A stretch of 64,000 nucleotides of DNA from an uncultured Eubacteriales bacterium (GTDB lineage Bacteria; Acidobacteriota; Aminicenantia; Aminicenantales; Saccharicenantaceae). The notes under the pieces are model-generated. The model did not search any database, had not been told where the DNA came from, and worked only from the letters and a program-made list of their open reading frames with translations. Each line of letters opens with the position of its first letter. Position 1 is the first letter of the stretch. The stretch spans positions 3,761-67,760 of the forward strand of contig CAZFZU010000006.1 in assembly GCA_964523615.1 (NCBI GenBank), in the 5' to 3' direction. Made by a program: the position numbers and the translations under genes. Below are positions 40,488 to 60,947 of this stretch, one piece after another.

Positions 40488-40501
<14 letters not shown>
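40428..40501 (+). tRNA. tRNA-Arg (ACG), no encoded CCA
   Basis: Acceptor GCGCCCG/CGGGCGC, D arm GCTC/GAGC, anticodon loop CT-ACG-AA, T arm GGGTG-TTCGAGT-CACCC; U27-C43 mismatch. Confidence 0.95.
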
Positions 40502-41882
<1,381 letters not shown>

Positions 41883-41911
41883 GAGGGGACTCCTTTGCGC
41901 GCCGGCGCCGG

Positions 41912-42601: not shown

Positions 42602-42658
42602 GTTCGAGCTCTTCGCGATGAGGTCGAGGCGTTCGAGCCCCGCGAACGACGAAGGACG

Positions 42659-42728
42659 ATTCTAAGCCCCGCGGCAGGCGGTGTCAACTTTCCGGCGGCT
42701 TGCCGGTATCCCGCCTCTCTCTTATAAT
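42659..42728. promoter_or_regulatory. Back-to-back divergent promoters of the inositol module
   Basis: Minus strand: TTGACA(42687-42682)-17-TAGAAT(42664-42659). Plus strand: TTGCCG(42700-42705)-17-TATAAT(42723-42728). Confidence 0.75.
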
Positions 42729-42735
42729 GAGCCCC

Positions 42736-43524
42736 ATGCGCCATCCCCTTACGCCCGCGAGGGCTTCGCTGAGCCCTTGGTCCCCGGCCCGTTGGGGCAA
42801 GGGCTTGGCCCGCCTCAATTTCCGGCGGGCCGGCGAATGCGCCGCCGTGCTCCGGTGGCTCGAGGCCGGGGCGGGGGAGCGGGTCCTCGATATCGGCAGT
42901 GGCGACGGCTATTACGACTGGCGCGTCAGCCGCTCGGGCGCCCGCGTCACCGGGATCGACCTCCACGAGAAGCGACTGGCCTTCGCCCGCCGGCATTACG
43001 CTGACGAACGAACGGAGTTCCTGACCATGGACGCCGAGCGGGCCGACTTCCCGCCCGGCTCGTTCGACAAGGCCATGAGCCTCTGCGTCATGGAGCATCT
43101 CGGCGACGACGAGAAGGTCCTGCGGAACGTGGCCCGGGCCCTCGTGCCGGGCGGGCGGTTCGTCTTCTCGGCCGACAGTCTGTCGAATCCCGGGCTCGGG
43201 CCCCATGAGAGGGAGCGGCACCGCGCCCGGTACGCCGTGCGGACGTTCTACACGCCGGAGGTCGTGCGGGCCAAGCTCGACCGGGCCGGTTTCGAGGTCG
43301 AGGCGACGGGCTTCGTCATGGACACGGCCTTCGACCTGGCCTTCGTCCGGATGTCCTGGGCCCTCGACCGGCTCCCGGGCCTCCTCGTCCCCGCCCGCGT
43401 GATCGGCTATCTCCTGCTCGGCGCCGCTTGGTCCGCGGTCACCGCCGCCCGGGGCCGGACGCTGCCGTCGGACGCGCCGGGCGGCCTGACCATCGTCGTC
43501 CGGGCCAGAAAGAAAAGCGCGTGA
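42736..43524 (+). CDS. Class I SAM-dependent methyltransferase
   Basis: VLDIGSGDG, GIDL, MDAE..DF..GSFD; start uncertain (42727 or 42736). Confidence 0.88.
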   Translation: MRHPLTPARASLSPWSPARWGKGLARLNFRRAGECAAVLRWLEAGAGERVLDIGSGDGYYDWRVSRSGARVTGIDLHEKRLAFARRHYADERTEFLTMDAERADFPPGSFDKAMSLCVMEHLGDDEKVLRNVARALVPGGRFVFSADSLSNPGLGPHERERHRARYAVRTFYTPEVVRAKLDRAGFEVEATGFVMDTAFDLAFVRMSWALDRLPGLLVPARVIGYLLLGAAWSAVTAARGRTLPSDAPGGLTIVVRARKKSA

Positions 43525-45272
43525 CGCCTCCCGAGACCTGCGTCATCATCGCCGCCGGCCGCGGCAGCCGCCTGGCCGGGCGCGCGGCGAGCAAGCCCCT
43601 GCTCGAGGTCGCCGGCCGGCCTCTCATCGACCGGGCCATCGACGCGGCCCGCCGCGCCGGGGTCCGCCGGTTCGTCGTCGTGACCGGATACGAAGCGGCG
43701 GCGGTCGAGGCCCACCTGGCCGCTCGCGCGGCGGCCGAAGGCCTGGCCATCGAGACGCTCCGGAACGACGAGTGGGAGAAGGACAACGGGCTCTCGGTCC
43801 TCAAGGCCCGCGGCCGGGCCGGCGAGCGCTTCTTCCTGCTCATGGCCGACCATGTCGTCGACCCGGGCCTGCTCGCCGGGCTGGCCGCGGGGGGCGGCGA
43901 CGCCGGGGGGATCGTCCTGGCCGTCGACCGGCGCGTCGAAGGCCATCCTCACGTCGACCTCGACGACGTCACCCGGGTCCGCGTCGAGGGCGGCCGCATC
44001 GCGGAGATCGGCAAGCGCATCGACGTTTTCAACGCCTTCGACACCGGGGTCTTCCTCTGCACGCCGGGCCTCTTCGAGGCCCTCGAGGAGAGCCAGGCCC
44101 GCGGCGACTTCACTCTGTCCGGAGGCGTCCGCGCCCTCGCCGCGAGGGGCCGGGCCCGGACCTGGGATGCCGGCGCCCTGTTCTGGATCGACGTCGATGA
44201 CGAGGCCGCGCTGGCGAAAGCCGAGGCGGCCGTCGCCGCCGGGCTGGCCGGACCGGCCGGCGGGGATCCGGCCTGCCGGCCGCGGCGGCCGATCGGACCG
44301 GCCCGGCTCCTCTTCTGCGCGGCCGGCTTCCTGCTCCTCGTCTACCTGGTTTGGCGGATCGGTTTCGAGGCCGCCCTCGCCCAGGTCGCCCGGTTCGGCC
44401 CCTGGTTCCTGGCGATCACCGCGATCTCTTTCGGCTGGCTCTTCCTCCAGGCCTGCGCCTGGTCCCTCATCCAGGCCGCCCACTTCCGGCGGGTCCCGCT
44501 CTCGAGCCTGTTCCGGGCCAAGATCATCGGCGACACGCTCAACGCCCTCATCCCCACGGCCAGCGTCGGCGGCGACGCCGCGCGGGCTTTCCTGGTCCGG
44601 CGCCACGCGCCGCTCGAGGAGGCCATCCCGGGCGTGCTCGTCGACAAGACCGTCGAGTTCGCCGCGGGCAGCCTGTTCCTGGCGACCGGTTTCCTGCTCA
44701 GCCTGCTCTTCGTCGACCTGCCCGGCTGGATGGACGCCGTCGCGGCGGCCTGCCTCGCCGGAATGGCTTTCGGGGTGGCGGCCCTGGTCCTGCTTCAGAA
44801 AAAGGGAGCGGCCTGGACCCTCGACCGGCTGGGCCGGTTGGTCCCCGGCGTCCGCCGGTTCGTCGCGAGGAAGGAGGACGGCGTCCGGGCCCTCGACCGC
44901 AATCTCCGCCTCGTCTGCGGCCGCCTCGACGCCCGGACGGGCGCCGCGGCCGCCCTGCACTTCGCGGCCCGGGTCCTCGGCGCCGGCGAGGTCCTCATCG
45001 TCATGAGGGTCCTCGGATCGCCCGTGCCCTTCATCGAGGCGGTCTTCATCGCGGCCGGCGTCAGCATCGTCAACACGGCCCTGTTCGTCGTGCCCGGGCA
45101 TCTGGGCGTCATGGAGAGCGCCCACGTCCTCATCCTGCGGAGCCTGGGCTTCGCGGCGGAGACCGGGCTCGGCGTGGGCCTCATCCGGCGGCTCCGCAAG
45201 ATAGCGACGATGGCGGCGGGCCTGGCGCTGCTCTCGCTGGACAAGGGATATCGGTCCAAGGGGGGAACATGA
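43521..45272 (+). CDS. Nucleotidyltransferase (IPCT/LicC-like) fused to a lysylphosphatidylglycerol-synthase-TM/flippase-like domain
   Basis: GTGA overlap; IIAAGRGSRL...KPL, NDEWEKDNGLS, MADH, DTG.F, WIDVDD; then a multi-TM region with N.LIPTASVGGD and PGHLGVME; no internal stop. Confidence 0.8.
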   Translation: MTPPETCVIIAAGRGSRLAGRAASKPLLEVAGRPLIDRAIDAARRAGVRRFVVVTGYEAAAVEAHLAARAAAEGLAIETLRNDEWEKDNGLSVLKARGRAGERFFLLMADHVVDPGLLAGLAAGGGDAGGIVLAVDRRVEGHPHVDLDDVTRVRVEGGRIAEIGKRIDVFNAFDTGVFLCTPGLFEALEESQARGDFTLSGGVRALAARGRARTWDAGALFWIDVDDEAALAKAEAAVAAGLAGPAGGDPACRPRRPIGPARLLFCAAGFLLLVYLVWRIGFEAALAQVARFGPWFLAITAISFGWLFLQACAWSLIQAAHFRRVPLSSLFRAKIIGDTLNALIPTASVGGDAARAFLVRRHAPLEEAIPGVLVDKTVEFAAGSLFLATGFLLSLLFVDLPGWMDAVAAACLAGMAFGVAALVLLQKKGAAWTLDRLGRLVPGVRRFVARKEDGVRALDRNLRLVCGRLDARTGAAAALHFAARVLGAGEVLIVMRVLGSPVPFIEAVFIAAGVSIVNTALFVVPGHLGVMESAHVLILRSLGFAAETGLGVGLIRRLRKIATMAAGLALLSLDKGYRSKGGT

Positions 45273-46801
45273 AGATCGGCGGGCGTTCGGTCCGCGAAGA
45301 CCGGGACACGACGGAGGTTTCGGCGATCGTCGACGGTTACCGCCTGTGGTACCGGGTGCCGCGATCGTACGCCGTCACCGATTCGGCCGATCCCTTCCTC
45401 GCGGCGGCCCTGTTCCCGGCCATGAGGCTGGGGCGGAAGATCGAGGTCGATCCGGCTCTGTCGGTGTCGCCGCGGCTGCTCGAGAACCTCCGCGCCCTTC
45501 AGGAGATCCATCACGTCTGGAATCCCCAGCTTCGGATCGTCCCCATCGAGGCCAGGACCGCGCCGGGCCGGGCCCTGCGCGACGGGGTCCTGTCCTTCTT
45601 CTCGGGCGGGGTCGACAGCTTGTACACGTTCCTGAAGCGCCAGGAAGAACTGACGCATCTCGTCCATATCCAGGGCTTCGATTTTTCCGCGGAGAGCGGG
45701 GACTCCGGGGCCTTGATCGCGGCGGACCTGACCGACCTGTCGCAGCTCGCCTTCAAGCTTCTGGCGCCGGCCAACGCGGTCCGGGCGTTCCTGAGATCCC
45801 GGCTGTCGCCGAAGACCCTGTCGGACTTGGCCGAATACCGGCGATCGGGGGAGGTCCCCGAGGGCCTGGAAGAGGCTCTGGCCGGGGACCTGAACAGGGT
45901 CCTGACGGAGGGGCCGATCTGGCAGGACCGGCGTTTCGCCGGGATCGCCCTCCGGCCGGAGACCCGGGAACTCCTGGCGGCGGGGCCGCCTCCCGAAGAC
46001 ACGGTCCGGCTCAACCGGCGACTTCTCGAAGACGCTTTTCCTCTGGAGATCTCGCGTCCGCGCGGCCGGTCCTTCGACATCGCCGTCGACCGGAACACCC
46101 GGTTCGTCGAGAACGCCGGGAAGACCCTGGTCCCGGTGGCGACGAATTATTTCTCCTTCGGCTACCGCTACAACTTGAGCCGGACCCTGACGCAGGGGAA
46201 TTCTTTGGCTTGCGTCGCCCTGCTCCTGGGATTCCCGCGCGTCTATATCCCGGGCGCCTATTCCTACGGCCAACTCATCCCCCTGGGGTCCCATCCGCTG
46301 ACGGACCCTCTCTGGTCGAACGGGAGCGTCGCGATCGTCCACGACGGGGCCGAGGTCCAACGGGTGGACAAGGTCGTCAAGATCGCCCGGAACAGGGATG
46401 CCCTGGCGAATCTGAGGGTCTGTTTCACCGATATGAACGTCAATTGCGGCCGGTGCTCCAAATGCCTGCGGACGATGATCCCGCTGGCCCTGCTCGACGC
46501 TCAGGCGCCCCCCTTTCCCCCCCTGCCTTCGCTCCGGAAGATCCGCCGGATGCGCCTGGCCAACGAGAACGAGCGGAAGTACTTCAAGGAGAATTTCGAC
46601 GCGTCTTTGGGCGCCGCGCGGCCGGAGCTCAGGCGCGCGCTGAGTTCCGTCCTCAGGCGGTACGAGCGGCGCCGGCTGCTCGAGGACATCGACGCCCAGC
46701 TGCTCGGCGGCTGGGTCAGGAAGGCCTACCGGCGGATCTTCGCGTCGGGCGAGCGACACGTCCGGATCGGCGCGACGCCGCCTGATGGCGGCACCCTATA
46801 G
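45269..46801 (+). CDS. PP-loop (adenine nucleotide alpha-hydrolase) protein with CGxCxKC motif and ~125-aa insertion
   Basis: ATGA overlap; FFSGGVDS; GSHP.TDPLWS; NCGRCSKCLRT. Confidence 0.7.
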   Translation: MKIGGRSVREDRDTTEVSAIVDGYRLWYRVPRSYAVTDSADPFLAAALFPAMRLGRKIEVDPALSVSPRLLENLRALQEIHHVWNPQLRIVPIEARTAPGRALRDGVLSFFSGGVDSLYTFLKRQEELTHLVHIQGFDFSAESGDSGALIAADLTDLSQLAFKLLAPANAVRAFLRSRLSPKTLSDLAEYRRSGEVPEGLEEALAGDLNRVLTEGPIWQDRRFAGIALRPETRELLAAGPPPEDTVRLNRRLLEDAFPLEISRPRGRSFDIAVDRNTRFVENAGKTLVPVATNYFSFGYRYNLSRTLTQGNSLACVALLLGFPRVYIPGAYSYGQLIPLGSHPLTDPLWSNGSVAIVHDGAEVQRVDKVVKIARNRDALANLRVCFTDMNVNCGRCSKCLRTMIPLALLDAQAPPFPPLPSLRKIRRMRLANENERKYFKENFDASLGAARPELRRALSSVLRRYERRRLLEDIDAQLLGGWVRKAYRRIFASGERHVRIGATPPDGGTL

Positions 46802-48037
46802 GAGGGACGCCCGTCCGGCCGGACCGGCGTAGAGCCTTCGTTGATGCCGGTTCACCAGGAGGTCCTCGTCGCCGAACGCCCGGAGGACGTCGACGCTCTC
46901 GAGCAAGGGTCCCGCGACCTGCTCGTTGAAGGTGAGATCGGCCGCTCCGTTGATCTCGATGAGGACCGGTTCTCCGGCCTGATCGAGCGCCAGGTCCAGG
47001 CCGAGCAGGCGGTAAAAAGGGAAGGCCCTCTGAACGTCCTCGGCGAAGGCGGCGAGACGGTCCCACTCCGGGACCGCGCGGCCGGCGAAGACGATCCCCG
47101 TCGTCGGATGGGCCGGATAGGCCCGGGATCTCTTGTCGTAGGCGGGGCCCCTCAACCGGCCGTCGCGGACATCGATGCCGACCCCGATGCCGCCCGCGCT
47201 CCAATTGTCGATGAGGGCGCCCCCGACGCCGGCCCTCAGCGCGGCGCTGACGATCAGGACCTCCCCCCGGCCCGTCAGCATGGTCAGGACGCGGACCGTA
47301 TTGAGCGAAGTCTCCGCGAACGCGGCCATGCGGGCGTCCTGGCGGACGACCTCCTGGACGACGGCCTTCTCCGTGAGGACGAGATCCCCGAGCTCTTGGA
47401 AGCCCGTTCCGGACCTGACGCGAACGCCCCGGTCCGTCCTCTCCGCCAGGACGATGTTCCGTCCCGTCTCCCCGAATTGCGGCTTGATGATCACCGCTCC
47501 GGCCGCGGAGGTCCGGAGCCAGCCCTCGATCAGGGACCGATAGTCGTTGGCGGGATCGACGACGCCGTAGATCGGAGGCGTTCGGATCCCCAGGGCCTGG
47601 CAGAGCAGGCCGCAGAGATATTTGTCGTTGAAGATCACGCGGTAGACCGGGGGCTGGACGGCCTTTCTCAATCGCCGCTGCTGATGGGGATGGTAATTCG
47701 ATCCGTAATAGTATTTCCAGGCGCTCCGGTCGACCTCCCACAGGCGATAGCGTTCGTAGTGGTCCGGGAAGGTCCTGTACGAGAAGAACAGGACGAGGAG
47801 ATCGCCGGCCGTCCGCCAGCCCGGAGTCTTCATGTCGGCGCGGGACCTGACGCGCGCGTAGCAGGACGGCAACTGGAGGAACTGCTTGAAGCGCTCGTAG
47901 CGGAGGCGCAAGCCGGGGAAGAGGCGTCGCTTCAGTTCCCGGTAGACGCGAAGAGCCCTCGCGAAGGCCGGCTCGGCCGGGGCGGGAACCCCGGACGGCA
48001 CGGCCGCCGGGGCTTCGGGGGGTCTTAGCGGACTCAC
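46796..48037 (-). CDS. Sugar-transfer-associated ATP-grasp protein
   Basis: FNDKY, IIKP..G..G, VVQE, NTVRVLT, DNWSAGG, GLDLA, IEIN. Confidence 0.85.
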   Translation of the reverse strand: MSPLRPPEAPAAVPSGVPAPAEPAFARALRVYRELKRRLFPGLRLRYERFKQFLQLPSCYARVRSRADMKTPGWRTAGDLLVLFFSYRTFPDHYERYRLWEVDRSAWKYYYGSNYHPHQQRRLRKAVQPPVYRVIFNDKYLCGLLCQALGIRTPPIYGVVDPANDYRSLIEGWLRTSAAGAVIIKPQFGETGRNIVLAERTDRGVRVRSGTGFQELGDLVLTEKAVVQEVVRQDARMAAFAETSLNTVRVLTMLTGRGEVLIVSAALRAGVGGALIDNWSAGGIGVGIDVRDGRLRGPAYDKRSRAYPAHPTTGIVFAGRAVPEWDRLAAFAEDVQRAFPFYRLLGLDLALDQAGEPVLIEINGAADLTFNEQVAGPLLESVDVLRAFGDEDLLVNRHQRRLYAGPAGRASLL

Positions 48038-50396: not shown

Positions 50397-51581
50397 GTGC
50401 GATACCTCATCCTGAACGACATCCCGACCCCGTGGCGGGAACCCGTCTACGAACGGGTCCATCGGGCCCTGGGGGGGGACGTCCGGGTGGCCTATTTCAA
50501 GGGCAACGAGAAACGGCGGCTGTGGACCTTCAAACAGGGGAGCCATCCCAAGACGATCCTGCGAGGCCTGACGATCACGATCCGGGGCACGGAACGGTTC
50601 TTCAACCCCGGCATCGTGCCGCTTCTCCTCCGGGACCGGCCCCGCTTCGCTTTGCTGGCGACGTGCATCAAGGACCCGACGTTCTGGCTGGCGGCGGTCG
50701 TCCTCAGGCTCCTCGGGACCAGGATCGCCCTGCTCGAGGACACGTGGTCCGGCCGCGACCGGGGGATCGGGCCCCTGCAGAAGCTGGCCCGCCGGACCGT
50801 CTACCGGGCCTTCGGCGACGCGTTCGTCGGCACCAGCCGGCAGGCCCTCGCCTTGTACCGGCATTATCATCCGCGGATCGGACCGGAGCAGGAATCGTTG
50901 AGCCACCTCGTGGCGGACAACGCCTATTTCCTGGCCCGGCTGGGAGACCGGAGTTTCGAGCGACGCTACGACATCATGTTCTCGGGCCGCATCGTCCCGG
51001 TGAAGAACCCGGTGTTCTTCGCCCAGGTCTGCGCCGCCGTGAGGTCCCGAATGGGCCGGTGCCGCGTCCTGATCATCGGTGACGGTGACGAGGCCCTCAA
51101 GGCGGCCATGCGGGCCGTCTTCGACGCCCGCGGCGTGGACTACGACTTCGCGGGCTTCATTCCCCACGACCGGCTGCCCGATCACTACGCCCAGGCGAAG
51201 CTGCTCCTGCTGCCCACTTCGGGCGACTGCTGGGGCGTCGTCATCAACGAGGCCATGCTGGCCGGGAGCCCCGTGATCACGACCGACATGACCGCGGCCG
51301 CGGGCGAGCTCGTCCTGGACGGGCAGAACGGGCGTGTCCTGCCCCTCGACGTCGAGGCCTGGGCCCAGGCGATCGTCGAGCTCCTCCAGGACGCCGGAAG
51401 ATACGGGCGGTTCTCGGCGAGCGCGCGGGACAAGGTCCGGGAATTCGATTTCGACCGGGCGGCGGAGGGGATCCTCGAGGCCTTTCGCTATCTGGACGGC
51501 GCCGGCGGCCCGGGCCCGCGGAGCGAGCGGCCGCTCACCGGTCGGCCTCATGGGCCCCGATATCGGGGGCCGAGCCTTTGA
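50397..51581 (+). CDS. Glycosyltransferase family 4
   Basis: FSGRIVPVKN, DCWGVVINEAM..G.PVI; start uncertain (50364 or 50397); 3' end overlaps the convergent gene by 47 nt. Confidence 0.88.
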   Translation: MRYLILNDIPTPWREPVYERVHRALGGDVRVAYFKGNEKRRLWTFKQGSHPKTILRGLTITIRGTERFFNPGIVPLLLRDRPRFALLATCIKDPTFWLAAVVLRLLGTRIALLEDTWSGRDRGIGPLQKLARRTVYRAFGDAFVGTSRQALALYRHYHPRIGPEQESLSHLVADNAYFLARLGDRSFERRYDIMFSGRIVPVKNPVFFAQVCAAVRSRMGRCRVLIIGDGDEALKAAMRAVFDARGVDYDFAGFIPHDRLPDHYAQAKLLLLPTSGDCWGVVINEAMLAGSPVITTDMTAAAGELVLDGQNGRVLPLDVEAWAQAIVELLQDAGRYGRFSASARDKVREFDFDRAAEGILEAFRYLDGAGGPGPRSERPLTGRPHGPRYRGPSL

Positions 51582-54282
51582 GGACGCGGCGGCCGCCGGA
51601 ATCGCTGTAGAGCCAGATCTTGTCGCCGTCCGCCCAGGTCAGAGGCGAGGCCAGCGTGATCGTCTTCGTCGCGTAATCGATGGCGGTGATCCGGACCGCA
51701 TTGGCGACCGTTCCGACGGCGATCCAATCGGGGAAATGGGTCACGCCGTGGGTCAGCCCGGAACCCCACGTTCCGTCCTGGAAGAGGAACGCGTCCTCGA
51801 CGACCAGGGTCAGGCTGCCGGTCCCGCTTCCGTTGGCCAGAGTGAGCGGCGCGCCGGCGTCGACGCACGGGGAGCCGGCCGACAGACGCAGGTCGGGCAG
51901 GACCAGGCTGGACTTGTCCGACATATCCGGATTGGCGAACACGGGATCGGAGTTGAAGTTGTTCGCGTAGGTGACCTGGGGCAGGATGTTGGCCGTTCCG
52001 ACCCGCCATTCCTGGAAGTTGTCGAAGACGATGTTGTTCTTGACGACGACGTTCGTCGGCCAGTCGTCGTAAGCGGCATACGACCAGATGCACACGCCGT
52101 GCTTGAATTGGTCGCCGTAGATGGAGGCGTCGCCGTAGCCGCCGTGATAGATCGTGTTATGGTAGACCCGCCCCCAGCTCCCGCTCTTGAGGTTCGTGGC
52201 CTCCCCGCCCTTGGGCTGCATCTTGCTGTAGTAGCCCATGCCGCCGTTCCCGTAGATGTCGTTGTATCGGACGATCGTGTGGCAGCCGGCGTTCTCGATC
52301 CCCGTCGCGCCGTCGTCGTCCGGCGGGGTCCCGGCGTATCCGATCCGGTTGCCCTCGATCAGGGTGTGGAAGGCCGTGCCCGGATTCTCGCCGGAGTTGG
52401 ACAGGAGGATGTTCCTGTTCCCGAAATACCCGCTCGCGGGGACGTTGTCGAATCGCTTGGTGAGGTCCCTGAAATACGCCCCTTCGTTATGGAAGACGTT
52501 GTTCCGGACGACGTTGAACTGCCCGCCGATGTCGATGCAGTCGTGACCGCCGTAGAAGAAGACGTTGTCCTCGAAGGTGTTGTGGGAGGTCGTGTCGTCG
52601 TAATTGCTGCTGATCCTGATGGTCCCGAGGTCCTCCCCCGTCAGGTAATCGATCTTGCCGTACCGGGAAAAGGTATTGTGGTGGAGCCAGTTGTCCCGGG
52701 TCTTGGCCTTCGCGTTGCGGGCCGAGTTCCAGTCCGTGATATAGCCGAGCTGATAATCGCCGGAGCTGCGGTCGAAGGCGCAATTCGAGATCTCGTTGAA
52801 GCAGGCGCCGTAGCCGATGTAGAAGAACGCCCCCGAGTTCGAGCTCACGATGCCGTCGACCTTGATATAGCTGACGCCCTGGAGCTTGACGGCCCAACGC
52901 CCCCCGGCTTCGTCGACCGTGAACCTGGCGATCTCGCCGCCGTAGGCCTGGAAGACGATCCTGTTCTCCTTGGTGCCGGACCGGACCGGGGCCACGGATG
53001 TGGCGTAGGTCCCGCCGCGAAGACTGACGACATCCCCGGCGGCGGCGTTCGTGTTCGCCGTGCGCAAGGAACAGCACGCCGATCCCGCCAGAGGGGAGTC
53101 GCTCCGGGCGTCTTGCCACGAGGCCGTTCCGGTGGGGCTGACCCAATAGGTCCCGGCCGTGACGTTCCCCGAACCGACGAGGACGCGGCGGCTGTGGCTT
53201 TGAGCGCCGGAAGGCCCGGTCACCGAGAGGGTCACGTTGTACGTCCCGGCGCCGGCGAAGGCGTGGCCGGGGTTCCGCTCCGCGCTCGTCGAACCGTCGT
53301 TGAAATCCCAGGCCCAGGCCGTCGCTTCCCCGGTCGACAGGTCCGTGAACTGGACGACCTGGCCGACGTCCGGGTAGGCCGGCGTGTAGGTGAAAGAGAC
53401 GGCGGGCGTGGCGCCCGTCACGACGACGGTCCGGCTCGCGCTCTTGGAGCCGGAGCCGTTGGAATTGGTGAGGCTGACCGTGTAGGACCCGGCGGCCGCG
53501 TAGACGTGGCTCGGATGACGCTGGCTGCTCGACGTGCCGTCCCCGAACTTCCAGAACCAAGCCGTCGGATTGCCGGTCGAGGTGTCCGTGAACTGGACCG
53601 ATTGGCCCGCGGACGGCTCGCTCGGCGAGTACGTGAAGGACGCGGTCAGGACCGACATGGTCGCCACGGTGATCGTCTTGGCGGCCCGGCGCGTACCGGA
53701 ACTGCCGGTGCACGTCAGGGAGACCGTATAATAGCCGGCCTTGGCGAACGCATGGCTGGGGTTCTTCACCGTGCTCGTCGTCCCGTCCCCGAAATCCCAG
53801 AGCCAGGATTTCGGGTCGCCCGGCGTCGTGTCGGCGAATGACACGGTCTGCCCGACGCCGGGGGAGGTCGGGCTATGGACGAACGAAGCCGAGAGACTAT
53901 CCGGCAGGACCGCGAAGGTCCGAACGGTCTTCTTGGAGCTGGTGCCGGTCGTCGCCGTCAGCGTGACCCGGAAAAAGCCGGAACGGCGGAACGTGTGGAC
54001 CTCGTTCTGCCGGGTGCTCGTGACCCCGTCGCCGAAGTCCCAGAGCCAGAACTGGACCGCCTCGGTGGCCTCGCCCCTGAAGGAGACCGGTTGCCCCTGA
54101 ACGGGCACGGCGGGGGAGTAGGCGAGCGTGATCCGGAAACCGGACGTCAGTTGCGCGAGACGGCTGAGGCGGCTCTGGGCCTGCGCGGGCAGTCCCAGGA
54201 GCTGAAGGCCGATCGTCCCGATAAGTAAGGCGCGCAGGGTCCGGAGATGGTCAGTCCGGCGACTCGTCGTACTCGAGGCCAT
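51535..54282 (-). CDS. Secreted protein: 4 PKD domains plus right-handed parallel beta-helix
   Basis: ATG 54282 after GGAGGAG; signal peptide; W.W.FGDG x3 and WAWDFNDG; Asn-rich beta-helix repeats; C-terminal APDIGAHE. Confidence 0.85.
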   Translation of the reverse strand: MASSTTSRRTDHLRTLRALLIGTIGLQLLGLPAQAQSRLSRLAQLTSGFRITLAYSPAVPVQGQPVSFRGEATEAVQFWLWDFGDGVTSTRQNEVHTFRRSGFFRVTLTATTGTSSKKTVRTFAVLPDSLSASFVHSPTSPGVGQTVSFADTTPGDPKSWLWDFGDGTTSTVKNPSHAFAKAGYYTVSLTCTGSSGTRRAAKTITVATMSVLTASFTYSPSEPSAGQSVQFTDTSTGNPTAWFWKFGDGTSSSQRHPSHVYAAAGSYTVSLTNSNGSGSKSASRTVVVTGATPAVSFTYTPAYPDVGQVVQFTDLSTGEATAWAWDFNDGSTSAERNPGHAFAGAGTYNVTLSVTGPSGAQSHSRRVLVGSGNVTAGTYWVSPTGTASWQDARSDSPLAGSACCSLRTANTNAAAGDVVSLRGGTYATSVAPVRSGTKENRIVFQAYGGEIARFTVDEAGGRWAVKLQGVSYIKVDGIVSSNSGAFFYIGYGACFNEISNCAFDRSSGDYQLGYITDWNSARNAKAKTRDNWLHHNTFSRYGKIDYLTGEDLGTIRISSNYDDTTSHNTFEDNVFFYGGHDCIDIGGQFNVVRNNVFHNEGAYFRDLTKRFDNVPASGYFGNRNILLSNSGENPGTAFHTLIEGNRIGYAGTPPDDDGATGIENAGCHTIVRYNDIYGNGGMGYYSKMQPKGGEATNLKSGSWGRVYHNTIYHGGYGDASIYGDQFKHGVCIWSYAAYDDWPTNVVVKNNIVFDNFQEWRVGTANILPQVTYANNFNSDPVFANPDMSDKSSLVLPDLRLSAGSPCVDAGAPLTLANGSGTGSLTLVVEDAFLFQDGTWGSGLTHGVTHFPDWIAVGTVANAVRITAIDYATKTITLASPLTWADGDKIWLYSDSGGRRVLKGSAPDIGAHEADR

Positions 54283-54373
54283 GCGGTTCTCCTCCGTGCA
54301 GGTTCTGTGTGTCCCGGCGATCAGGCGCTTCCGGACAACGCGTCCATTCTGGCCCAGGTGAGCGGCTCGGGTA

Positions 54374-54389
54374 TCACCCTTTAGGGGGA
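54374..54389. promoter_or_regulatory. 16-bp imperfect palindrome TCACCCTTTAGGGGGA (candidate TF site, copy 3)
   Basis: 14/16 match to TCAYCCYTARGGRTGA; intergenic, upstream of the PKD/beta-helix gene; CAGAAT lies 22 nt downstream on the minus strand. Confidence 0.4.
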
Positions 54390-54457
54390 TTCCCGGGAGC
54401 ATAATCTCCGGAACGGACTAGCCATCCGAGGGGGACTCCAGACCGGGACCCACCGGC

Positions 54458-56164
54458 TCAGCGGTCGTCCCGGACATCGGTGGATTCGTGGGCCCCGATG
54501 TCGGGCGCGCGTCCATGGAGGACCTGCCGGCCGTCGGAATCCCGGAACAGCCAGACGGGGGCCCGCGTTTTCCAGGTCTTGGGCCCGGCGAGGATGATGA
54601 GTCCGTCCTCGTAGGAGATCGATCGGATCTCGACGACGTTGTCGACGGTCCCGATGGCGATCCAGTCCGGCCGGACCCCGGAGAGCGAGGACCCCCAAGT
54701 CCCGTCCTGAAAGACATAGGCGTCCGCCACGTGAAGCCGCGTGGCCCGGAAGCCCGGCTCGACGGCCGCCGTGAGGCCGATGCCCTTATCGATACAGGGA
54801 GAGCCGGGCCGCAGCCTCAGGTCGGGCGATCCCCGGCTGGCCTTGTCCGACAGGTCCGGGTCCCGGAAATGGGGATCCGAGCCGAAGTTGTTGGCGTAGG
54901 TGATCTGAGGCAGTATGTTCCTGGACCCGACGCGCCATTCGTTGGCGTTGCCGAAAACGATGTTGTTCTTGATGACGACGTCGCGGGGCCAGTCGTCGTA
55001 GGACCGGTAGGACCAGACGCAGATGCCGTGCTTGAATTGGACGTCGATGCTGGGGTCGCCGAACCCGTTGGCGTAAACGGAGTTGTTGTACACCCTGGCC
55101 CGGCTGCCGCTCAACAGAGCCGAACCGGTCTCGGGGTGATCGCCCTGCATTTTGCTGTAATATCCCATCCCTCCGTTGCCGTAGATGTCGTTGTAGCGGG
55201 CGACGGTGTGGACACCGGCGTTCTCGATCCCGCACGAACCGTCGTCGTCGGGCGGCGTGCCCGCGTGGCCGATCCGGTTGCCTTCGATCAGGGTGTGATG
55301 GGCCGTCCCGGGGCCTTGGCCGTAGTTCGACAAGAGGACGTTCCGGTTCCCGAAGAAACCGCTGAGCGGCTTGTTCCTGCTGGTCCCGGCGGTGTCCTCG
55401 AAATAGGCCTCCTCGTTATGGAACACGTTGTTCCTGACGACATTGAAGCGGCCGCCGATATCCAGGAGGTCGTGCCCGCCGTAGAAGAACACATTGTGCT
55501 CGAAGGTCGTGTGGCTGGACGGATCGGACCTGAGACCGGAGATCCTGACGGTGCCCAGGTCGTTGCCTTCGCGGACGGCTCCGTACCTCGAAAAGACGTT
55601 GTGATGGAGCCAGTTGTGGTCCGACGGCGCGCCGGCCTCGAACGCCGTGTCGTAAAAGGAGATCAGGCCGACCGAATACTGCCCTCCGCTCCGGTCGAAG
55701 ACGCAGTGGGCGATCTCGTTGTAGCAGGCCCCGTCGCCGAGGAAGAAGAAGGCTTGAGAGCCCTCGCTGTGGATGCCGAACACTTTGATGTGGCTCCGGC
55801 CGACGACGGTGATGGCCCGTTCGCCGGCCACCCGGAACACCGGGACCTCTCCGGAGTGGGCCCGGAACACGATCGGACGGTCCGCGGCGCCAGAATTCGC
55901 CGGCCGGATGCCCGTCGCGTAGGTCCCGCCGCGCAGCCGGACCGTGTCTCCGGCCGAAGCGCGGGCGTTGGCCGAGCCGATGGAACAGCAGTCCTTCCCT
56001 TCGAGGGGAGCTTCGCTCCGGGCGTCCGCCCAGGCCGCCGTGCCCTCGGGGCTCACCCAGTAGATCGCCCCTTCGGCGGGCCGGCCGGTCCTGCCCGCGG
56101 GAAGGGAGCCCGTCAACCACAGGGCCCCGGCCAGGAGACAGAGCGACCTCAGGATGGGAGACAC
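54458..56164 (-). CDS. Secreted right-handed parallel beta-helix protein (PKD-less paralog of 51535-54282)
   Basis: Signal peptide; shared blocks with the paralog (GNGGMGYYSKMQ, FKHG.C.WSY..YDDWP, NILPQ.TYANNF.SDP, APDIGAHE). Confidence 0.85.
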   Translation of the reverse strand: MSPILRSLCLLAGALWLTGSLPAGRTGRPAEGAIYWVSPEGTAAWADARSEAPLEGKDCCSIGSANARASAGDTVRLRGGTYATGIRPANSGAADRPIVFRAHSGEVPVFRVAGERAITVVGRSHIKVFGIHSEGSQAFFFLGDGACYNEIAHCVFDRSGGQYSVGLISFYDTAFEAGAPSDHNWLHHNVFSRYGAVREGNDLGTVRISGLRSDPSSHTTFEHNVFFYGGHDLLDIGGRFNVVRNNVFHNEEAYFEDTAGTSRNKPLSGFFGNRNVLLSNYGQGPGTAHHTLIEGNRIGHAGTPPDDDGSCGIENAGVHTVARYNDIYGNGGMGYYSKMQGDHPETGSALLSGSRARVYNNSVYANGFGDPSIDVQFKHGICVWSYRSYDDWPRDVVIKNNIVFGNANEWRVGSRNILPQITYANNFGSDPHFRDPDLSDKASRGSPDLRLRPGSPCIDKGIGLTAAVEPGFRATRLHVADAYVFQDGTWGSSLSGVRPDWIAIGTVDNVVEIRSISYEDGLIILAGPKTWKTRAPVWLFRDSDGRQVLHGRAPDIGAHESTDVRDDR

Positions 56165-56166
56165 GG

Positions 56167-57078
56167 CTAGAAATCCCGCGTCTTCCTCATCTCGATCCCC
56201 GCCGCGGCGGCCAGCCGGCTCAGATGGTAGGCGGCGCCTTCGAGACGTTTCACCCAGACATGGGCGCCGAGGATGCGGGTCACCGGAGCGCTGACGGCGA
56301 ATGCGAGCAGGGCGACCGCCGACTTGACCAGGGACGCCGCCGTCTTGGGCCCACGGCCTTCACGGACGGAGTATTTGTGAGCGTTATAGCCGTTGACCAG
56401 GGCGCGCCGGACGAAGTAGGCCTTGTCCCAGCGCTCGGGGAGGATGACCTCATAGACGGGCGCTTCGTCCACGGCCACGAACCGAAAGCCCGCATCCATC
56501 GCCTGCCTGAAGAACGCTTGGTCCGAGCCTCCCGTCCGGAAGGCCTCGTCGAAGCGGAGAGAATCCCTGTCGAAGACGTCCTTCTTGAGCAACACGTTGC
56601 CGGTGTAGCATTGATCCCACCGCAGCCGCGTCCCGGTCCGCCGGCGAGGCAGGTCCGACAATCGGCTTTTGATCAGCCAGTCCGGCGGGGCTTGGTCGAA
56701 GAACGGGACGACCGGTCCCAACGCGCCGTCCACGTCGAAGGTCCTCACGGCCTCGTAGAGGGTCCGCAGCCAGTGCGGAGGAGGGATCTCGTCGTCGTCG
56801 ATGATGGCGATGAACGGCCCCTTGGCCAATCCCAGGGCATGGTTTCGCGCGAACGGGATCCCTTTCCGCGGTTCGACGCCGTAGATCACATCCAAGGGCG
56901 ATCCCGGACCGAGGCGCTCGACCTCGGCGCGCGCCGGGCCTTCGGGATCGTTGTCGACGACGACCACGGAGAAGGTGAACAGTCCGTCCGTCCGCTGGAG
57001 GGCGAGGTTCCGCAGGAGCCGGGCCAGCAGGGCGTTGCGGCGGTAGGTGCAGACACAGACCGTGATGTGATCGGCCAT
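56167..57078 (-). CDS. Glycosyltransferase family 2
   Basis: ATG 57078 after GGAGGA; VCVCTYRR, VVVDND, ARN, IIDDDE, GGSD. Confidence 0.92.
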   Translation of the reverse strand: MADHITVCVCTYRRNALLARLLRNLALQRTDGLFTFSVVVVDNDPEGPARAEVERLGPGSPLDVIYGVEPRKGIPFARNHALGLAKGPFIAIIDDDEIPPPHWLRTLYEAVRTFDVDGALGPVVPFFDQAPPDWLIKSRLSDLPRRRTGTRLRWDQCYTGNVLLKKDVFDRDSLRFDEAFRTGGSDQAFFRQAMDAGFRFVAVDEAPVYEVILPERWDKAYFVRRALVNGYNAHKYSVREGRGPKTAASLVKSAVALLAFAVSAPVTRILGAHVWVKRLEGAAYHLSRLAAAAGIEMRKTRDF

Positions 57079-57163
57079 GGCGTTCCTCCGGGCCCAGTAT
57101 AGCGGACTCGACGGGGCGGGACCAAGGGAAATCTTCCGCCCTTCCGGCCGCAGGGACACCCGG

Positions 57164-57192
57164 TTGACATCACCTATCCCGGGCGATATATT
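57164..57192 (+). promoter_or_regulatory. Promoter for the enolase-like/phosphatase pair
   Basis: TTGACA-17 nt-TATATT. Confidence 0.75.
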
Positions 57193-57246
57193 GAGGTTAG
57201 CGACGGCTCCGTCCTTCCGGAAACGCGCAGGAAAGAGGTGAACGCG

Positions 57247-58419
57247 ATGCCCGTGATCAGGAAGTTGGCCTGCCGCAGGATCCTCAACTCCCACGTCGAG
57301 TTCACCAACGAGTTCGTCGTCGAGCTCGCCGACGGGGCCATCGGCCTCGGAGGCTCGCCGCAGGGCGAGACCATCAGCATCTATGAGGACAAGAGGACGG
57401 GGATAGGCCCCGAGACGGTCGTCCGGAAGCTCGAAGCGGCCGGCGTCCTCGGCCGCGAGATCGATCAGGCGGGATTCGACGCCGTCCTGGAGAGCGAGAT
57501 CCCCCATATCGGCAGGAACAACGCCTTCGGCCTGTCGCTGGCTTTCTTCAACGCGACGCGAGAGACCCGGACGCTCGCCGAGCTCTTCGGGCGGCCTCCG
57601 GCCCCGCTGGCCCCGCCGCGACTGTGCCTGAACATCCTCAACGGGGGCTGGCACGCCTACACCAATCCGGTCTTGAGCGATTTCCACGAGTACATCCTGG
57701 TCGCCAAGAGCACCGATATCGCGGCCGTCATCGCGGACCACAACGAGATCCAGAGGACGGTGAGGGACAAGCTTCTCGGCCAGTCCAAAACGGTCGTCTC
57801 GGGCCATCCGGTCAACCGTTTCGCCACCGCCGACAACCGGGAATGCATCGATTTCCTGCTCAAGGTCCGGGACGGCCTGGGCCTCGCGGACAAGTACGAT
57901 CTCATGATCGACGCCTCGGCCGGGGACCTCTGGTCCGACGGGGGATACCGGCTGCCCATCACCGACGGCTCGGTCCGGACCCCGGAACAGTTCCACGGCT
58001 ATTGGCTGGACATCATCCGCGAGTACGGGCTGCGCCTCCTCGAGGACCCCTTCCGCGAGCAGGACCCGGAGAGCTGGACCGGGCTCACGACCGCCCAGGG
58101 GTCCTGCTGGACCATCGGGGACAATTTCTATTCGTCGAGCGCCGCGCGGATCGAGGAAGGCGCGGCTCACCGCCGCACGCACGGGGCCGTCATCAAGCCC
58201 AATCAGGCCGGGACCGTCACGGCCGTCCGGCGGGCCGTCGAGGCTTGCCGCAAGACCGGTCAGGTCGCCATCACGTCCCACCGGTCCATCAGCACCGAAG
58301 AGACCTTCATCTCCACGCTCACCTGCCTGTCCGGCGTCGGGTATATCAAGATCGGCCCGCTGGCGACGGATTACTCGTCGGTCGTCCGGTTGAACGCGAT
58401 CATCAGGCTCACGGAGTAG
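57247..58419 (+). CDS. Divergent enolase-superfamily protein (not canonical Eno)
   Basis: LNILNGG.H, MIDASA, LLEDP, IGDN, IKPNQAG, SHRS, IKIG retained; PSGAST, GDEGG and RSER motifs missing. Confidence 0.85.
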   Translation: MPVIRKLACRRILNSHVEFTNEFVVELADGAIGLGGSPQGETISIYEDKRTGIGPETVVRKLEAAGVLGREIDQAGFDAVLESEIPHIGRNNAFGLSLAFFNATRETRTLAELFGRPPAPLAPPRLCLNILNGGWHAYTNPVLSDFHEYILVAKSTDIAAVIADHNEIQRTVRDKLLGQSKTVVSGHPVNRFATADNRECIDFLLKVRDGLGLADKYDLMIDASAGDLWSDGGYRLPITDGSVRTPEQFHGYWLDIIREYGLRLLEDPFREQDPESWTGLTTAQGSCWTIGDNFYSSSAARIEEGAAHRRTHGAVIKPNQAGTVTAVRRAVEACRKTGQVAITSHRSISTEETFISTLTCLSGVGYIKIGPLATDYSSVVRLNAIIRLTE

Positions 58420-58425
58420 GCCCCC

Positions 58426-59052
58426 ATGCCGGTCCAAACCACCATCAGCACCATGCGGCACGCCCACACCCGTTACAACGCCGAGAAACGGTACGCCGGG
58501 ACCATCGACATCCCCCTGAGCCCGCTCGGCGTGCGGGACGCCCGCAGGGCGGCGGCGAAGCTGGCCGGGACGGGCTTCGACGTGGTCCTGACCTCGACGC
58601 AGAAAAGGGCCTATCAGACGGCCGAGATCCTCGTGGGGGACAGGGTCCGCATCGTCCGGAACAAGCTCTGCAACGAGCGCCGGTTCGGCGTGATGGAAGG
58701 ATTGACCTGGGACGACATCCAAACCCTCGATCCTCCCATCCTCATGATCCGGGTCGGGGCGGACCTGCACACCGTGAATCCCCGCGGCGGCGAACCGTTC
58801 GAGGAGGTCTGGGAGAGGGCCAGGAAGTTCCGCCGGTTCGTTTTCGAGAAGTACGCCGGCTCGAACGTCCTCGTCGTCTCCCATGGCGTGTTCCTGCAGA
58901 TGTTCCACGGCGTTCTCAGGGGTTTGAATTGCATCGAATCCCTGGCCAGCTATCCGGCCAACCTCGAGATGTCCCGGTTCCGCTTCGCCGGCCGCCGTCT
59001 GACGGACGAGGAAGTCGTCAGGCTGTCCGACGCCGTTCTCTTCAAATGGTAG
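58426..59052 (+). CDS. Histidine phosphatase (phosphoglycerate mutase) family protein
   Basis: RHAHT (RHG variant), S...RAYQTA, NERRFG, VSHG. Confidence 0.9.
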   Translation: MPVQTTISTMRHAHTRYNAEKRYAGTIDIPLSPLGVRDARRAAAKLAGTGFDVVLTSTQKRAYQTAEILVGDRVRIVRNKLCNERRFGVMEGLTWDDIQTLDPPILMIRVGADLHTVNPRGGEPFEEVWERARKFRRFVFEKYAGSNVLVVSHGVFLQMFHGVLRGLNCIESLASYPANLEMSRFRFAGRRLTDEEVVRLSDAVLFKW

Positions 59053-59073
59053 GACAGGCGGCCGAACGCCGCC

Positions 59074-59964
59074 TCACAGGAGCTTGGCCGGCAGACGGAG
59101 CAGGTCCCCCATGGTGGCCTGGGCCAGGTCGGTCAGATAGGTGTCGATCCCCCCGTTCGGAGAGAAGGTCATCTCGCCGAAATAGGCCCGGCCGCCGACG
59201 CTGAAGAAGTCCATGCGGACGAAGGGGAACGGCTTCGAAAGCGCCTCGGCCGCCGCGATGATCTCGTCGTAGGCGTCCGGCTTGGGGATGTCCCGGTTGG
59301 CCAGGAGGCTCGTCTTGCTGTAGGCCAGCTTGTTCGCCCAGCCCAGGTCGTAGAAATCGTAATTCGCCCTCTTCTCGTTCCTGTCCGTACAGGCCATGGT
59401 GCAGTGGGCCCGGCCGTCGAAGCAATAGACCTTGTAATCGTTGACCGGCTTGCCGGAGGGTTCCTGGAGATAGGCCTCGCAGATGATCCGGGGGACGATC
59501 GACGCGTAGTGGAGCTCCCCCACGATCTGGCTGATGTCGGTCCTCATCCACGCGCGCAGCTTGTCCTTCGTGGCTTCGATGTCGAGGCGGGCCTTGTCCT
59601 TGCAGAAAATGTTGAAGCCGCACCCGTGCGTGGCCTTCAGGACGAACTGGTCCGGCAGCCGGCCGAAATCGATCTCGTCGACGTGGGCGTAGACTCCGTA
59701 CAGCTCTTTCAGCAGACGGCCCAGGCCGTTCTCCTCAAGGTAGGAGCGGACGGCGTATTTGTCGGCGCACCGGACCTTGAGCGGATGCCGCCAATAGAGA
59801 TTGAGCCAGAGGAGCTTTTCGTCGAACGACCTCGGGTCCTTGATGTCGAGCCACTTGCCGGTCGCCCGATGATAGCGATACTGGGTCAACAGCAGAGGCG
59901 AGACCCGGAGCATGCCCCGGACCAGCAGCTCGCCGAGCCTTTCCTTGAACCGGCGCGCGGCCAT
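59074..59964 (-). CDS. TupA-like ATP-grasp protein
   Basis: FDEKL.WL, ADKYAVR, FVLKATHGCG, IICE, DYKVYCFDG, FVRMDF, FGEMTFSP. Confidence 0.9.
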   Translation of the reverse strand: MAARRFKERLGELLVRGMLRVSPLLLTQYRYHRATGKWLDIKDPRSFDEKLLWLNLYWRHPLKVRCADKYAVRSYLEENGLGRLLKELYGVYAHVDEIDFGRLPDQFVLKATHGCGFNIFCKDKARLDIEATKDKLRAWMRTDISQIVGELHYASIVPRIICEAYLQEPSGKPVNDYKVYCFDGRAHCTMACTDRNEKRANYDFYDLGWANKLAYSKTSLLANRDIPKPDAYDEIIAAAEALSKPFPFVRMDFFSVGGRAYFGEMTFSPNGGIDTYLTDLAQATMGDLLRLPAKLL

Positions 59965-59966
59965 GG

Positions 59967-60947
59967 TCAGACCCATTCCGGGTTCGAGCCCCACTTTTCG
60001 CCGAGGGTCTCGTCCAAGCTGAAGATATCGAAGGAGCGGAAGAGTTCGACGCCGACGGGATAGGGCGTGAGCTCTCCGAAGTAGATCCTATCCTGGAGAC
60101 TGTAGAGGTCGACCCTGATGAAATTGAAACCCACGGCCAGGGACTCCGCCAAGCTCAGCATGGCGGCGAGGTTCCGCGGCTTGGGGGGATCGATGTTGTG
60201 CTGCTTGAAGCCCGGCCTGAAACGGAGCCGGACGAAATCCCTGTCGACGGAGACGGACCTCGGGTTCTTGTGCCTGTCGAGGTGGACCGTGATGAGCTCC
60301 GTGCGTCCCGAGAAACAGTAGAACTTGTAATCGACCGGCGGCTGGCCGTGGTCGTCGATGAATTCCTCGATGAGGATCATCGGCTTGATGTTCTTATAGC
60401 CCCAGGCGATCCCCAAGTAGGTGTCCTCCGCGTAATTCTCCGAGAGCCACTTCTTGAGCTGCGCGGCGATGGCCGCGCGGTCGGCCCGGGCCTTGTCGGT
60501 GACCAGGACATTGTAACGGCAACCGTGGTTCGTCTTGATCACGAACCGGTCCGGCAGCCGGTCGTAGGGGATGGCCTCGGGGGTTTCCCCGCTCCACAGG
60601 AGGGGGATGAGGTTGTCGGTCCCCACTTTCTCGGCGACATAGCCGCGGACGAGGCGTTTATCGGAGATCGTGGTCAGGAGCGGGTGCCGGGACATCAGCA
60701 TCCGGCTCCAGAGCTTTTCTCCGAAACGGCGGGGCCGGACGAAATCCGGCCAATACCGGTAGACGACGAGAAAGGCGAGCCCGACCATCCCGCGCAACAG
60801 CGGATCGGCGGGCTTGTCCTTCAGGAAGAGGCGGGCGTAGGCCCGGACGAGCGGGTAATAGACCGAGTTGAAGAGCTTCTTCGAGTATTCGACATAGATC
60901 AAGACGGTCTGGATGCTCCCTGTCGCGATGCGTTCAGACGGCCCCAT
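59967..60947 (-). CDS. TupA-like ATP-grasp protein
   Basis: FGEKL, SDKRLVR, FVIKTNHGC, DYKFYCF, FIRVDLY, FGELTPYP; start uncertain. Confidence 0.88.
   Translation of the reverse strand: MGPSERIATGSIQTVLIYVEYSKKLFNSVYYPLVRAYARLFLKDKPADPLLRGMVGLAFLVVYRYWPDFVRPRRFGEKLWSRMLMSRHPLLTTISDKRLVRGYVAEKVGTDNLIPLLWSGETPEAIPYDRLPDRFVIKTNHGCRYNVLVTDKARADRAAIAAQLKKWLSENYAEDTYLGIAWGYKNIKPMILIEEFIDDHGQPPVDYKFYCFSGRTELITVHLDRHKNPRSVSVDRDFVRLRFRPGFKQHNIDPPKPRNLAAMLSLAESLAVGFNFIRVDLYSLQDRIYFGELTPYPVGVELFRSFDIFSLDETLGEKWGSNPEWV

Follow-up and report, generated by a model that had tools for sequence, protein, structure and literature searches.

We examined a 64,000-nucleotide stretch of DNA from an uncultured Eubacteriales bacterium (positions 3,761 to 67,760 of contig CAZFZU010000006.1, forward strand; hereafter the window), and in it a pair of adjacent genes that encode an enolase-like protein (ENL) and a histidine phosphatase (HP). 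The window has a G+C content of 68%, and its nearest relatives are Aminicenantes-type metagenome-assembled genomes (MAGs) at protein identities of 86-92%. The ENL-HP cassette is strongly conserved and uncharacterised and occurs in many bacterial phyla; its probable role lies outside glycolysis, in making a building block for surface sugars. On balance, we favour the view that ENL, HP and an adjacent ATP-dependent ligase form a fixed module that installs an amide-linked substituent, the target here being a Wzx/Wzy-type surface glycan. A first-pass annotation, which was a model's reading of the window sequence alone, had described the pair as a "degenerate" enolase and a phosphatase that act as a two-step unit in a glycan locus.

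A conserved enolase relative without the general acid

ENL (57247-58419, plus strand) is a 390-residue protein that has the N-terminal capping domain and barrel fold of the enolase subgroup. It matches the Pfam model Enolase_C (PF00113) at 90.8 bits, against a gathering threshold of 21.5, and does not reach the NCBIfam enolase equivalog TIGR01060 (112.1 bits against a cutoff of 300). Its identity to E. coli enolase is 23% by tblastn and 27% by alignment. Sequence and fold searches of the PDB, the latter with an AlphaFold2 model, returned genuine enolases only, at identities no higher than 26% and a TM-score of about 0.8; the best 50 Foldseek matches listed were all enolases (TM 0.76-0.81). The model has a mean pLDDT of 78.7, and its lid residues 40-49 fall below 50.

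To read the active site, we aligned 177 ENL family sequences with E. coli enolase (from NC_000913), whose numbering is used here. The Mg(I) ligands D246, E290 and D317, which lie in the motifs MIDAS, LLED and IGDN, are unchanged in all 177 sequences, as are the base K342 (IKPNQ), the second lysine K393, R371, S372 and E168; H370 is unchanged in 176 and H159 in 168. The first-pass annotation had listed the Mg ligands, the base lysine, the HRS motif and the second lysine as retained, and the alignment bears this out. Its list was correct but incomplete: Glu168 and His159 belong among the retained residues as well, and asparagine replaces Asp318 in 175 of the 177. The general acid E209, equivalent to yeast E211, is replaced by Asn in 167 sequences, by His in 7 (the window protein has His too) and by other non-acidic residues in the rest, and the position is acidic in none of the 177. 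The T-V-V-S-G-H-P-V-N loop of ENL contains no acidic residue. Relative to E. coli enolase, GDEGG has become SGHPV and S(R)SDR/RSER has become TDYSS, with Ile-Ser at G373-E374; here too the earlier description, that the Glu of GDEGG and the RSER motif were gone, agrees with the alignment. The PSGAST lid, which had likewise been called lost, is changed but was replaced rather than lost. PSGASTG reads PQGETIS in ENL, so that G-E-T-I-S-I-Y-E stands in place of the canonical S-G-A-S-T-G, and within the family motif P-x-G-E-T-I-S, A41 is Glu and the lid serine S42, a Mg(II) ligand, is Thr, both without exception. Threonine at this position keeps the hydroxyl, and Mg(II) binding may therefore persist. 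As an observation on the window protein itself, ENL residue 187 (57805-57807) is one of the rare histidines at the site where Asn predominates.

In yeast enolase, E211 serves as general acid when hydroxide leaves, and D321 holds two waters in place on Mg(II) (PMC4450660). By these roles, the elimination catalyst has been lost and the second-metal site remodelled together in ENL, the remodelling consisting of the D318 to Asn change and the new Glu beside the lid Thr. The alignment shows a site predicted to be intact for holding a 2-phospho-carboxylate on two Mg ions and for C2 proton transfer by K342, without the acid for hydroxide loss.

The description of ENL as degenerate does not hold. Among 13 members with 62-83% identity to the window protein, mean column identity is 77%, and the replacement motifs themselves are invariant. 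Judged by this conservation, ENL is a neofunctionalised clade of the enolase subgroup and not a decaying copy. The proposal that it does not serve glycolysis stands, both on the shortfall against TIGR01060 and on an acid position that is never acidic in the relatives.

A word-indexed protein search with ENL (E up to 1e-5) returned 676 proteins, the best 120 of which were full-length at 62-100% identity, and an exhaustive search of 1.84 billion representatives gave 36 at E up to 1e-30, with ordinary enolases beginning at about 1e-27. Full-length members down to 33-39% identity retain the G-E-T lid, NGGxHAYTNPVxSDFxE, GDN, KPNQ/KPDQ and SHRS, and these distant members likewise have no Glu in the acid loop. 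Three apparent domain fusions (P0166, P0168 and P0239) were set aside as canonical enolases with unrelated extensions. One relative of 397 residues, P0124, is 47% identical to ENL and has lost both the base lysine (VVSPTLAG) and HRS (EPAAESE); either a sequencing artefact or a genuine pseudoenzyme offshoot could account for this. Public records name members of the clade "enolase", "enolase 1", "enolase C-terminal domain-like protein" or "hypothetical protein". With an "enolase" label of this kind, the metabolic reconstruction of an uncultured phylum can wrongly show glycolysis as complete. We found no canonical eno within the window or any of the fetched loci, no publication on the ENL clade, and no paper on an enolase-like protein paired with a histidine phosphatase in polysaccharide clusters.

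ENL is invariably coupled to a histidine phosphatase

We surveyed one genome per species and recovered 45 ENL loci from at least 10 phylum-level groups. They come from Aminicenantes, Chloroflexota, Clostridia, Holophagae, Thermoleophilia, Coriobacteriia, Bacteroidales, Dehalogenimonas, Planctomycetota, Nitrospirota, Latescibacteria and others; the Holophagae loci include the cultured Geothrix rubra and G. limicola, both with a three-gene ENL-HP-ligase form. HP lies directly downstream of ENL in 45/45 loci. With the window included, the interval from the ENL stop to the HP start is -11 to +7 nt in 46/46, overlaps of 4, 8 or 11 nt being the commonest, and pairwise identities of ENL and HP are correlated (r = 0.89 over 903 pairs). 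The arrangement extends to the distant clade, in which all five members inspected (P0135, P0137, P0138, P0141 and P0144; 35-39% identity) have an overlapping His_Phos_1 gene after ENL. The idea of a two-step unit is thus well supported by adjacency, coupling and correlated divergence.

The window HP (58426-59052, plus strand; 208 residues) begins 6 nt after ENL (58420-58425) and is a branch-1 histidine phosphatase, translationally coupled to its partner. It scores 127.7 bits against Pfam His_Phos_1 (PF00300; threshold 21.7) and has all of the catalytic residues (R11-H12, R61, E84 and H153). All curated models remain below cutoff, with 93.6 against 162.9 bits for the CobC alpha-ribazole phosphatase, 73.8 against 350 for the phosphoserine phosphatase PspA, and 44.3 against 81.7 for the dPGM model TIGR01258; the PRK mutase models fall far below theirs. 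The nearest solved structure is the broad-specificity phosphatase PhoE (1ebb/1h2e; E = 1e-21), and the glucosyl-3-phosphoglycerate phosphatase GpgP (PDB 4pz9) also matches (E = 7.5e-8). Like HP, GpgP and PhoE are short branch-1 histidine phosphatases; their activity is either directed at phospho-acids or broad, and GpgP acts in a glycan (MGLP) pathway. Unlike them, HP reaches no curated cutoff and carries conserved motifs of its own, LCNERxFG, HxVNPxxGEPFE and FLQMFHG, which are seen across 45 orthologues. The RHA that had been noted in place of RHG is a true feature of the window protein but no family trait, as both forms occur among the orthologues.

In four Bacteroidales HP copies (L039, L041, L042 and L048; about 11172-11816), Ser-Ser-Ser replaces the SHG of the second catalytic histidine (H153). 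These copies keep the downstream LHG, a family-wide conserved His-Gly, and the sequences suggest that the catalytic residue may have shifted.

A carboxylate-activating ligase usually accompanies the pair

Two TupA-like ATP-grasp genes follow the pair in the window, both on the minus strand. The first (59074-59964; 296 residues in the public gene call) matches PF14305 at 144.4 bits and is convergent with HP. The second (59967-60947; 326 residues in the public gene call) matches at 127.9 bits and is a paralogue with 34% identity to the first. A third ATP-grasp enzyme, of the sugar-transfer-associated type (46796-48037, minus strand; PF14397, 155.5 bits), marks the left edge of the glycan locus.

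Across the survey, 33 of the 45 loci have a carboxylate-activating ligase no more than 350 nt from the pair, 32 by tblastn with representatives and one more through an AsnB-like gene in L036. Six ligase families occupy this position, and the family differs by lineage. TupA-like ATP-grasp enzymes, adjacent in only 14/45 loci, are found in the window and in Aminicenantes-type loci (L005-L011), where they are orthologues of the first window ligase, and as homologues with 36-52% identity in Geothrix (L032 and L037), L021, L030 and L031. RimK/LysX-like ATP-grasp enzymes are present in eight loci (public gene calls in L056 and L058 confirm this), and the sugar-transfer-associated ATP-grasp family (ATPgrasp_ST) in L020, in three copies. 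AsnB-like proteins occur in L012, L015, L016, L036 and L051; PaaK/F390-synthetase-like adenylating enzymes in Bacteroidales, Dehalogenimonas, L044 and L049; and a QueC-like PP-loop family, with three paralogues each, in L035 (Nitrospirota) and L060/L061. Several loci have two or three paralogous ligases around ENL-HP. What the six families have in common is ATP-dependent activation of a carboxylate, followed by its capture by an amine. The link that had been drawn to the neighbouring ATP-grasp ligases therefore survives in a broader form, as a ligase is usually adjacent but is not always of the ATP-grasp type. Our literature searches found no paper tying TupA-like ligases to an enolase. A fixed ENL-HP pair with swappable ligases offers a clean, testable case of modular pathway evolution.

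Three further observations concern these ligases. The QueC-like proteins (about 400-420 residues; L035:30-5655, L060:4407-12187) combine an SGG[IV]DS PP-loop with CGKCEKC and match no Pfam or NCBIfam model, and identity is 42-48% between the paralogues of the Nitrospirota MAG L035 and those of the unrelated metagenome contig L060/L061. An alanine-dehydrogenase/PNT-like gene stands beside the ligases in two phyla (L009:13768-14955, L010:13771-14973, L038:13030-14118); its product might act on an amino-acid partner of the ligase, either making or modifying it. PGA_cap (CapA-like) genes recur by the RimK-like ligase and ENL-HP (L023:8837-9988, L056:5886-6947, the end of L058, L017, L029 and L038), and their top NCBIfam match is a weak one to the peptide epimerase MslH.

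Glycan loci are frequent hosts

In the window, the pair lies in a Wzx/Wzy-type locus that runs from about 46.8 kb to beyond the window end. The locus contains the ATPgrasp_ST gene, an epimerase, a GFO/IDH/MocA oxidoreductase, a family 4 glycosyltransferase (GT4), two paralogous secreted beta-helix proteins, a GT2 gene, ENL-HP, the two TupA-like genes, another GT2 gene, a flippase and Wzy, and further on a C-methyltransferase and a dTDP-sugar isomerase. To look for comparable settings elsewhere, we built hidden Markov models from the GT4, GT2, flippase, Wzy and Wzz clusters of the analysed loci and applied them over a range of 10 kb; the gene calls came from a GC3-weighted caller and were compared with public ones. 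Glycan-assembly genes were detected within this range in 22/45 loci, and are also present at L051, L052, L056, L058 and L060.

The first-pass annotation had placed the pair in glycan loci and had held that a lack of such association in other genomes would count against it. The association is real in the window and in the 22 loci, but about half of the survey, Geothrix included, shows none of these genes over the 10-kb range, which bears out the objection in part. The cassette sits among unrelated genes in G. rubra (peptidases, a DeoC aldolase and RF3), in G. limicola (FeoB) and in Dehalogenimonas, and in four Bacteroidales MAGs ENL-HP-ligase is found among EanA/EanB-like genes, a trehalase and CotH. 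With a ligase adjacent more often than glycan genes are near, the core unit is best described as ENL, HP and a ligase, and the glycan locus as a frequent host. One of the Bacteroidales loci (L041:7158-9639) has a rhodanese-repeat protein and a histidine-specific methyltransferase directly upstream of ENL. They resemble EanB and EanA of the anaerobic ergothioneine route, and the adjacency is probably coincidental.

A proposed reaction and its alternatives

Within the favoured module, ENL would make or use the enolate of a 2-phospho acid from the phosphoenolpyruvate (PEP)/2-phosphoglycerate (2-PG) pool, without dehydration. No kinase travels with the cassette, so a 2-phospho acid of central metabolism, either 2-PG or PEP, would have to be the source of the phosphate. 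With one base and no acid, the site best fits a reaction in which a group not dependent on acid catalysis is added to, or eliminated from, C3. We propose that ENL may reversibly add a non-water nucleophile to C3 of PEP, with K342 protonating C2. Ammonia (or an amine) would be a first guess for the nucleophile, with sulfite or a thiol as alternatives; ammonia and PEP would give 3-amino-2-phosphopropanoate (2-phospho-isoserine), which amounts to ethanolamine phosphate with a carboxyl group. Ethanolamine phosphate is itself used by the one TupA-like ligase characterised so far, C. jejuni Cj1438C. We put forward the ammonia version tentatively, and rate it well short of an even chance. HP would then strip the phosphate, either from the free acid or after ligation. 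As an irreversible step, this would pull an unfavourable addition, which offers a rationale for the tight coupling of the two genes. The ligase would join the product, as acid or as amine partner, to an amine or carboxylate on the glycan or on another acceptor, and if that product bore an amine as well as a carboxylate, the presence of several paralogous ligases would be accounted for.

To our knowledge, no second reaction has been described within the enolase subgroup. In the enolase superfamily a second catalyst sits at the end of strand 2, and it is here that E209 has been lost in ENL. It is conceivable, if on the unlikely side, that the clade represents a second widespread reaction class in the subgroup, a C3-X lyase/synthase acting on PEP, whose product is dephosphorylated and amide-linked by interchangeable ligases to give an unseen glycan substituent or a new metabolite. 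Such a class would cover Aminicenantes, Chloroflexota, Acidobacteriota, Bacteroidales and others. If ENL does catalyse a new reaction, one of the best-studied mechanistic superfamilies would gain a functional branch, and bacterial surface glycans a new building block.

Several points weigh against the module and the chemistry proposed for it. Twelve of the 45 loci have no adjacent ligase, although some of these are short contigs. About half have no glycan genes within 10 kb, and the final acceptor may not always be a glycan. In the acid loop the alignment is ambiguous, placing either Ser185 or His187 opposite E209, and the acid may have moved to the invariant Glu41 or Asp196. A UDP-sugar 6-dehydrogenase active-site motif, which would point to a uronic-acid acceptor as in C. 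jejuni, is absent from the window and was found in 1/45 loci, though the gene may be elsewhere in the genome, and a DegT aminotransferase is likewise absent from the window and present within 10 kb in only 6/45 loci. Nucleophile addition is itself something we infer from chemical reasoning only, and isoserine was not found in the glycan literature that we searched. Neighbouring sugar genes were also considered as a means of telling an acid from an amine donor, and the Ugd-like and DegT hits proved too rare to inform the choice.

The cassette might instead yield a small soluble compound, for instance a secondary metabolite or an amide-type solute, and be present in glycan loci only incidentally. 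Of the alternatives this one survives best, and it draws its strength from the Geothrix, Dehalogenimonas and four Bacteroidales genomes, in which the cassette stands among unrelated housekeeping genes. We nonetheless consider it unlikely. The 22 loci, together with the distant L051 and L052, place the pair inside glycosyltransferase/flippase/Wzy clusters, often in the same direction of transcription; the one characterised TupA-like ligase acts on a glycan; and modifying genes can act in trans on a glycan encoded elsewhere.

A second alternative is that ENL is a racemase that converts 2-phospho-D-glycerate, or another 2-phospho acid, to the L form, after which HP would free L-glycerate and the ligase would N-acylate an amino sugar. 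This is close to the isomerisation that had been offered as an example of a two-step route. It is attractive in that the enolate-forming machinery is kept and the elimination step lost throughout the 177 relatives, the enolase superfamily includes racemases (PMC8142540), and PaaK-like, AsnB-like and other partner ligases typically activate small carboxylic acids. A 1,1-proton transfer, however, needs a second acid/base opposite K342, and the position at the end of barrel strand 2 is Ser, Gly or Asn, none of them an obvious second base. In addition, DegT is absent within 10 kb in 39/45 loci and in the window, and it is less easy to see why a product bearing one reactive carboxylate would call for two or three paralogous ligases. 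Racemisation is accordingly improbable in our estimation, and nucleophile addition to PEP is the better fit to ENL.

It is more doubtful still that ENL is a working enolase with a relocated acid (Glu41 or Asp196) and HP a phosphoglycerate mutase, the two providing PEP locally (3-PG to 2-PG to PEP) for PEP-requiring glycan reactions such as pyruvylation. A PEP-using polysaccharide pyruvyl transferase does lie directly downstream of ENL-HP in one locus type (L060:9185-9793, L061:9145-10146), ENL has two new invariant acidic residues, and HP belongs to the superfamily that contains dPGM. HP nevertheless falls under every mutase cutoff, TIGR01258 included, and among solved structures it is nearest to the phosphatase PhoE. 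Central metabolism already supplies PEP in abundance, the link to ligases is left unexplained, and the pyruvyl transferase is adjacent in that one locus type only. That ENL is a catalytically dead scaffold or regulator is scarcely credible, for although one catalytic residue is lost, and P0124 also lacks K342 and HRS, all other catalytic and metal-binding residues are invariant over many phyla, which would be unexpected for a pseudoenzyme.

Comparison with known systems

ENL shares with canonical enolase (EC 4.2.1.11) the two-domain fold (TM about 0.8), the Mg(I) ligands, the base lysine, the second lysine, the HRS phosphate site, His159 and Glu168. It differs in the absence of the general-acid Glu, in the G-E-T lid, in the Asp318 to Asn change and in being always operonic with a phosphatase. 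Enzymes that pair related chemistry or related proteins are known from other pathways. ComA and ComB, the phosphosulfolactate synthase and phosphatase of coenzyme M synthesis, join a non-water nucleophile to PEP at C3 in a Mg-dependent reaction and then remove the 2-phosphate. This is the same chemistry as we propose for ENL-HP, carried out by unrelated protein families without a ligase partner. PhpG and PhpH of phosphinothricin tripeptide biosynthesis are a phosphoglycerate-mutase-like and an enolase-like protein recruited as a pair from glycolysis. Unlike ENL, PhpH is proposed still to dehydrate a 2-PG analogue and so would need the acid Glu, and its context is a phosphonate cluster.

The closest parallel in logic is the glucuronamide module of C. 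jejuni HS:2 (Cj1436/Cj1437, Cj1438C and Cj1435; PMC12409886), in which a phosphorylated precursor from a central metabolite is used by a TupA-like amide ligase and a dedicated phosphatase. The TupA-like Cj1438C amidates glucuronate with ethanolamine phosphate or serinol phosphate, and the phosphatase Cj1435 then removes the phosphate (PMC12409886; PMC11800379). The window resembles this system in having TupA-like ligase genes beside the precursor genes (two PF14305 genes, 59074-60947). It departs from it in the enzymes themselves, as the C. jejuni precursor enzymes depend on pyridoxal phosphate and the phosphatase is of the HAD type, whereas in the cassette an enolase relative and a histidine phosphatase take their place, and neither of the C. 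jejuni types is included. The cassette ligase family also varies between genomes, unlike that of the C. jejuni module.

Promoter and surrounding features

A consensus promoter of its own and a 6-nt gap had been ascribed to the pair, and both are present. The sigma-70-type promoter (57164-57192, plus strand) consists of TTGACA, a 17-nt spacer and TATATT, matching at 11/12 positions. It is the top site in 6 kb, where 2 sites reach at least 9/12 against 0.6 +/- 0.7 in shuffles. Across 7 related loci, down to 78% protein identity, GTTGAC and ATATATT are unvarying while the neighbouring intergenic DNA is mostly unalignable; constant hexamers between diverging flanks provide phylogenetic support for a real promoter upstream of ENL. 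A Shine-Dalgarno sequence, AAGAGG (57233-57238, plus strand), was read from the sequence 8 nt before the ENL ATG, and the aligned related loci have a purine-rich block at its position. The GTG at 57238 chosen by an ORF finder falls within this element, and the ATG at 57247 is the start kept in related loci. An Rfam scan of 56900-59300 (E up to 1) found no riboswitch or other RNA element. A 7-bp GC-rich hairpin (59056-59074; -13.4 kcal/mol) lies between the convergent stops of HP and the first TupA-like gene; as a candidate terminator after HP it was rejected, being not significant (z = -1.9) and without a T run. A mobile-element origin of the pair was also considered and set aside, with no plasmid match at E up to 1e-30.

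Other features of the window and related loci may bear on the products made there. Two secreted proteins encoded side by side (51535-54402 and 54458-56164, minus strand), immediately upstream of the GT2 gene divergent from ENL, have in common a C-terminal region of Pel9A-like right-handed beta-helix type, with four PKD domains in addition in the larger one. A role as lyase or depolymerase acting on the polymer of this same locus is possible. Close by the glycan locus but not part of it (40488-45272), a myo-inositol-1-phosphate synthase gene near a nucleotidyl transferase-LPG_synthase_TM fusion suggests synthesis of an inositol-containing lipid or solute. Finally, a sugar C-methyltransferase and a dTDP-sugar isomerase occur together both at L002:18662-20427, just past the window end, and at L052:6223-7903, the locus of a distant member with 36% ENL identity, which hints at a shared branched deoxysugar.

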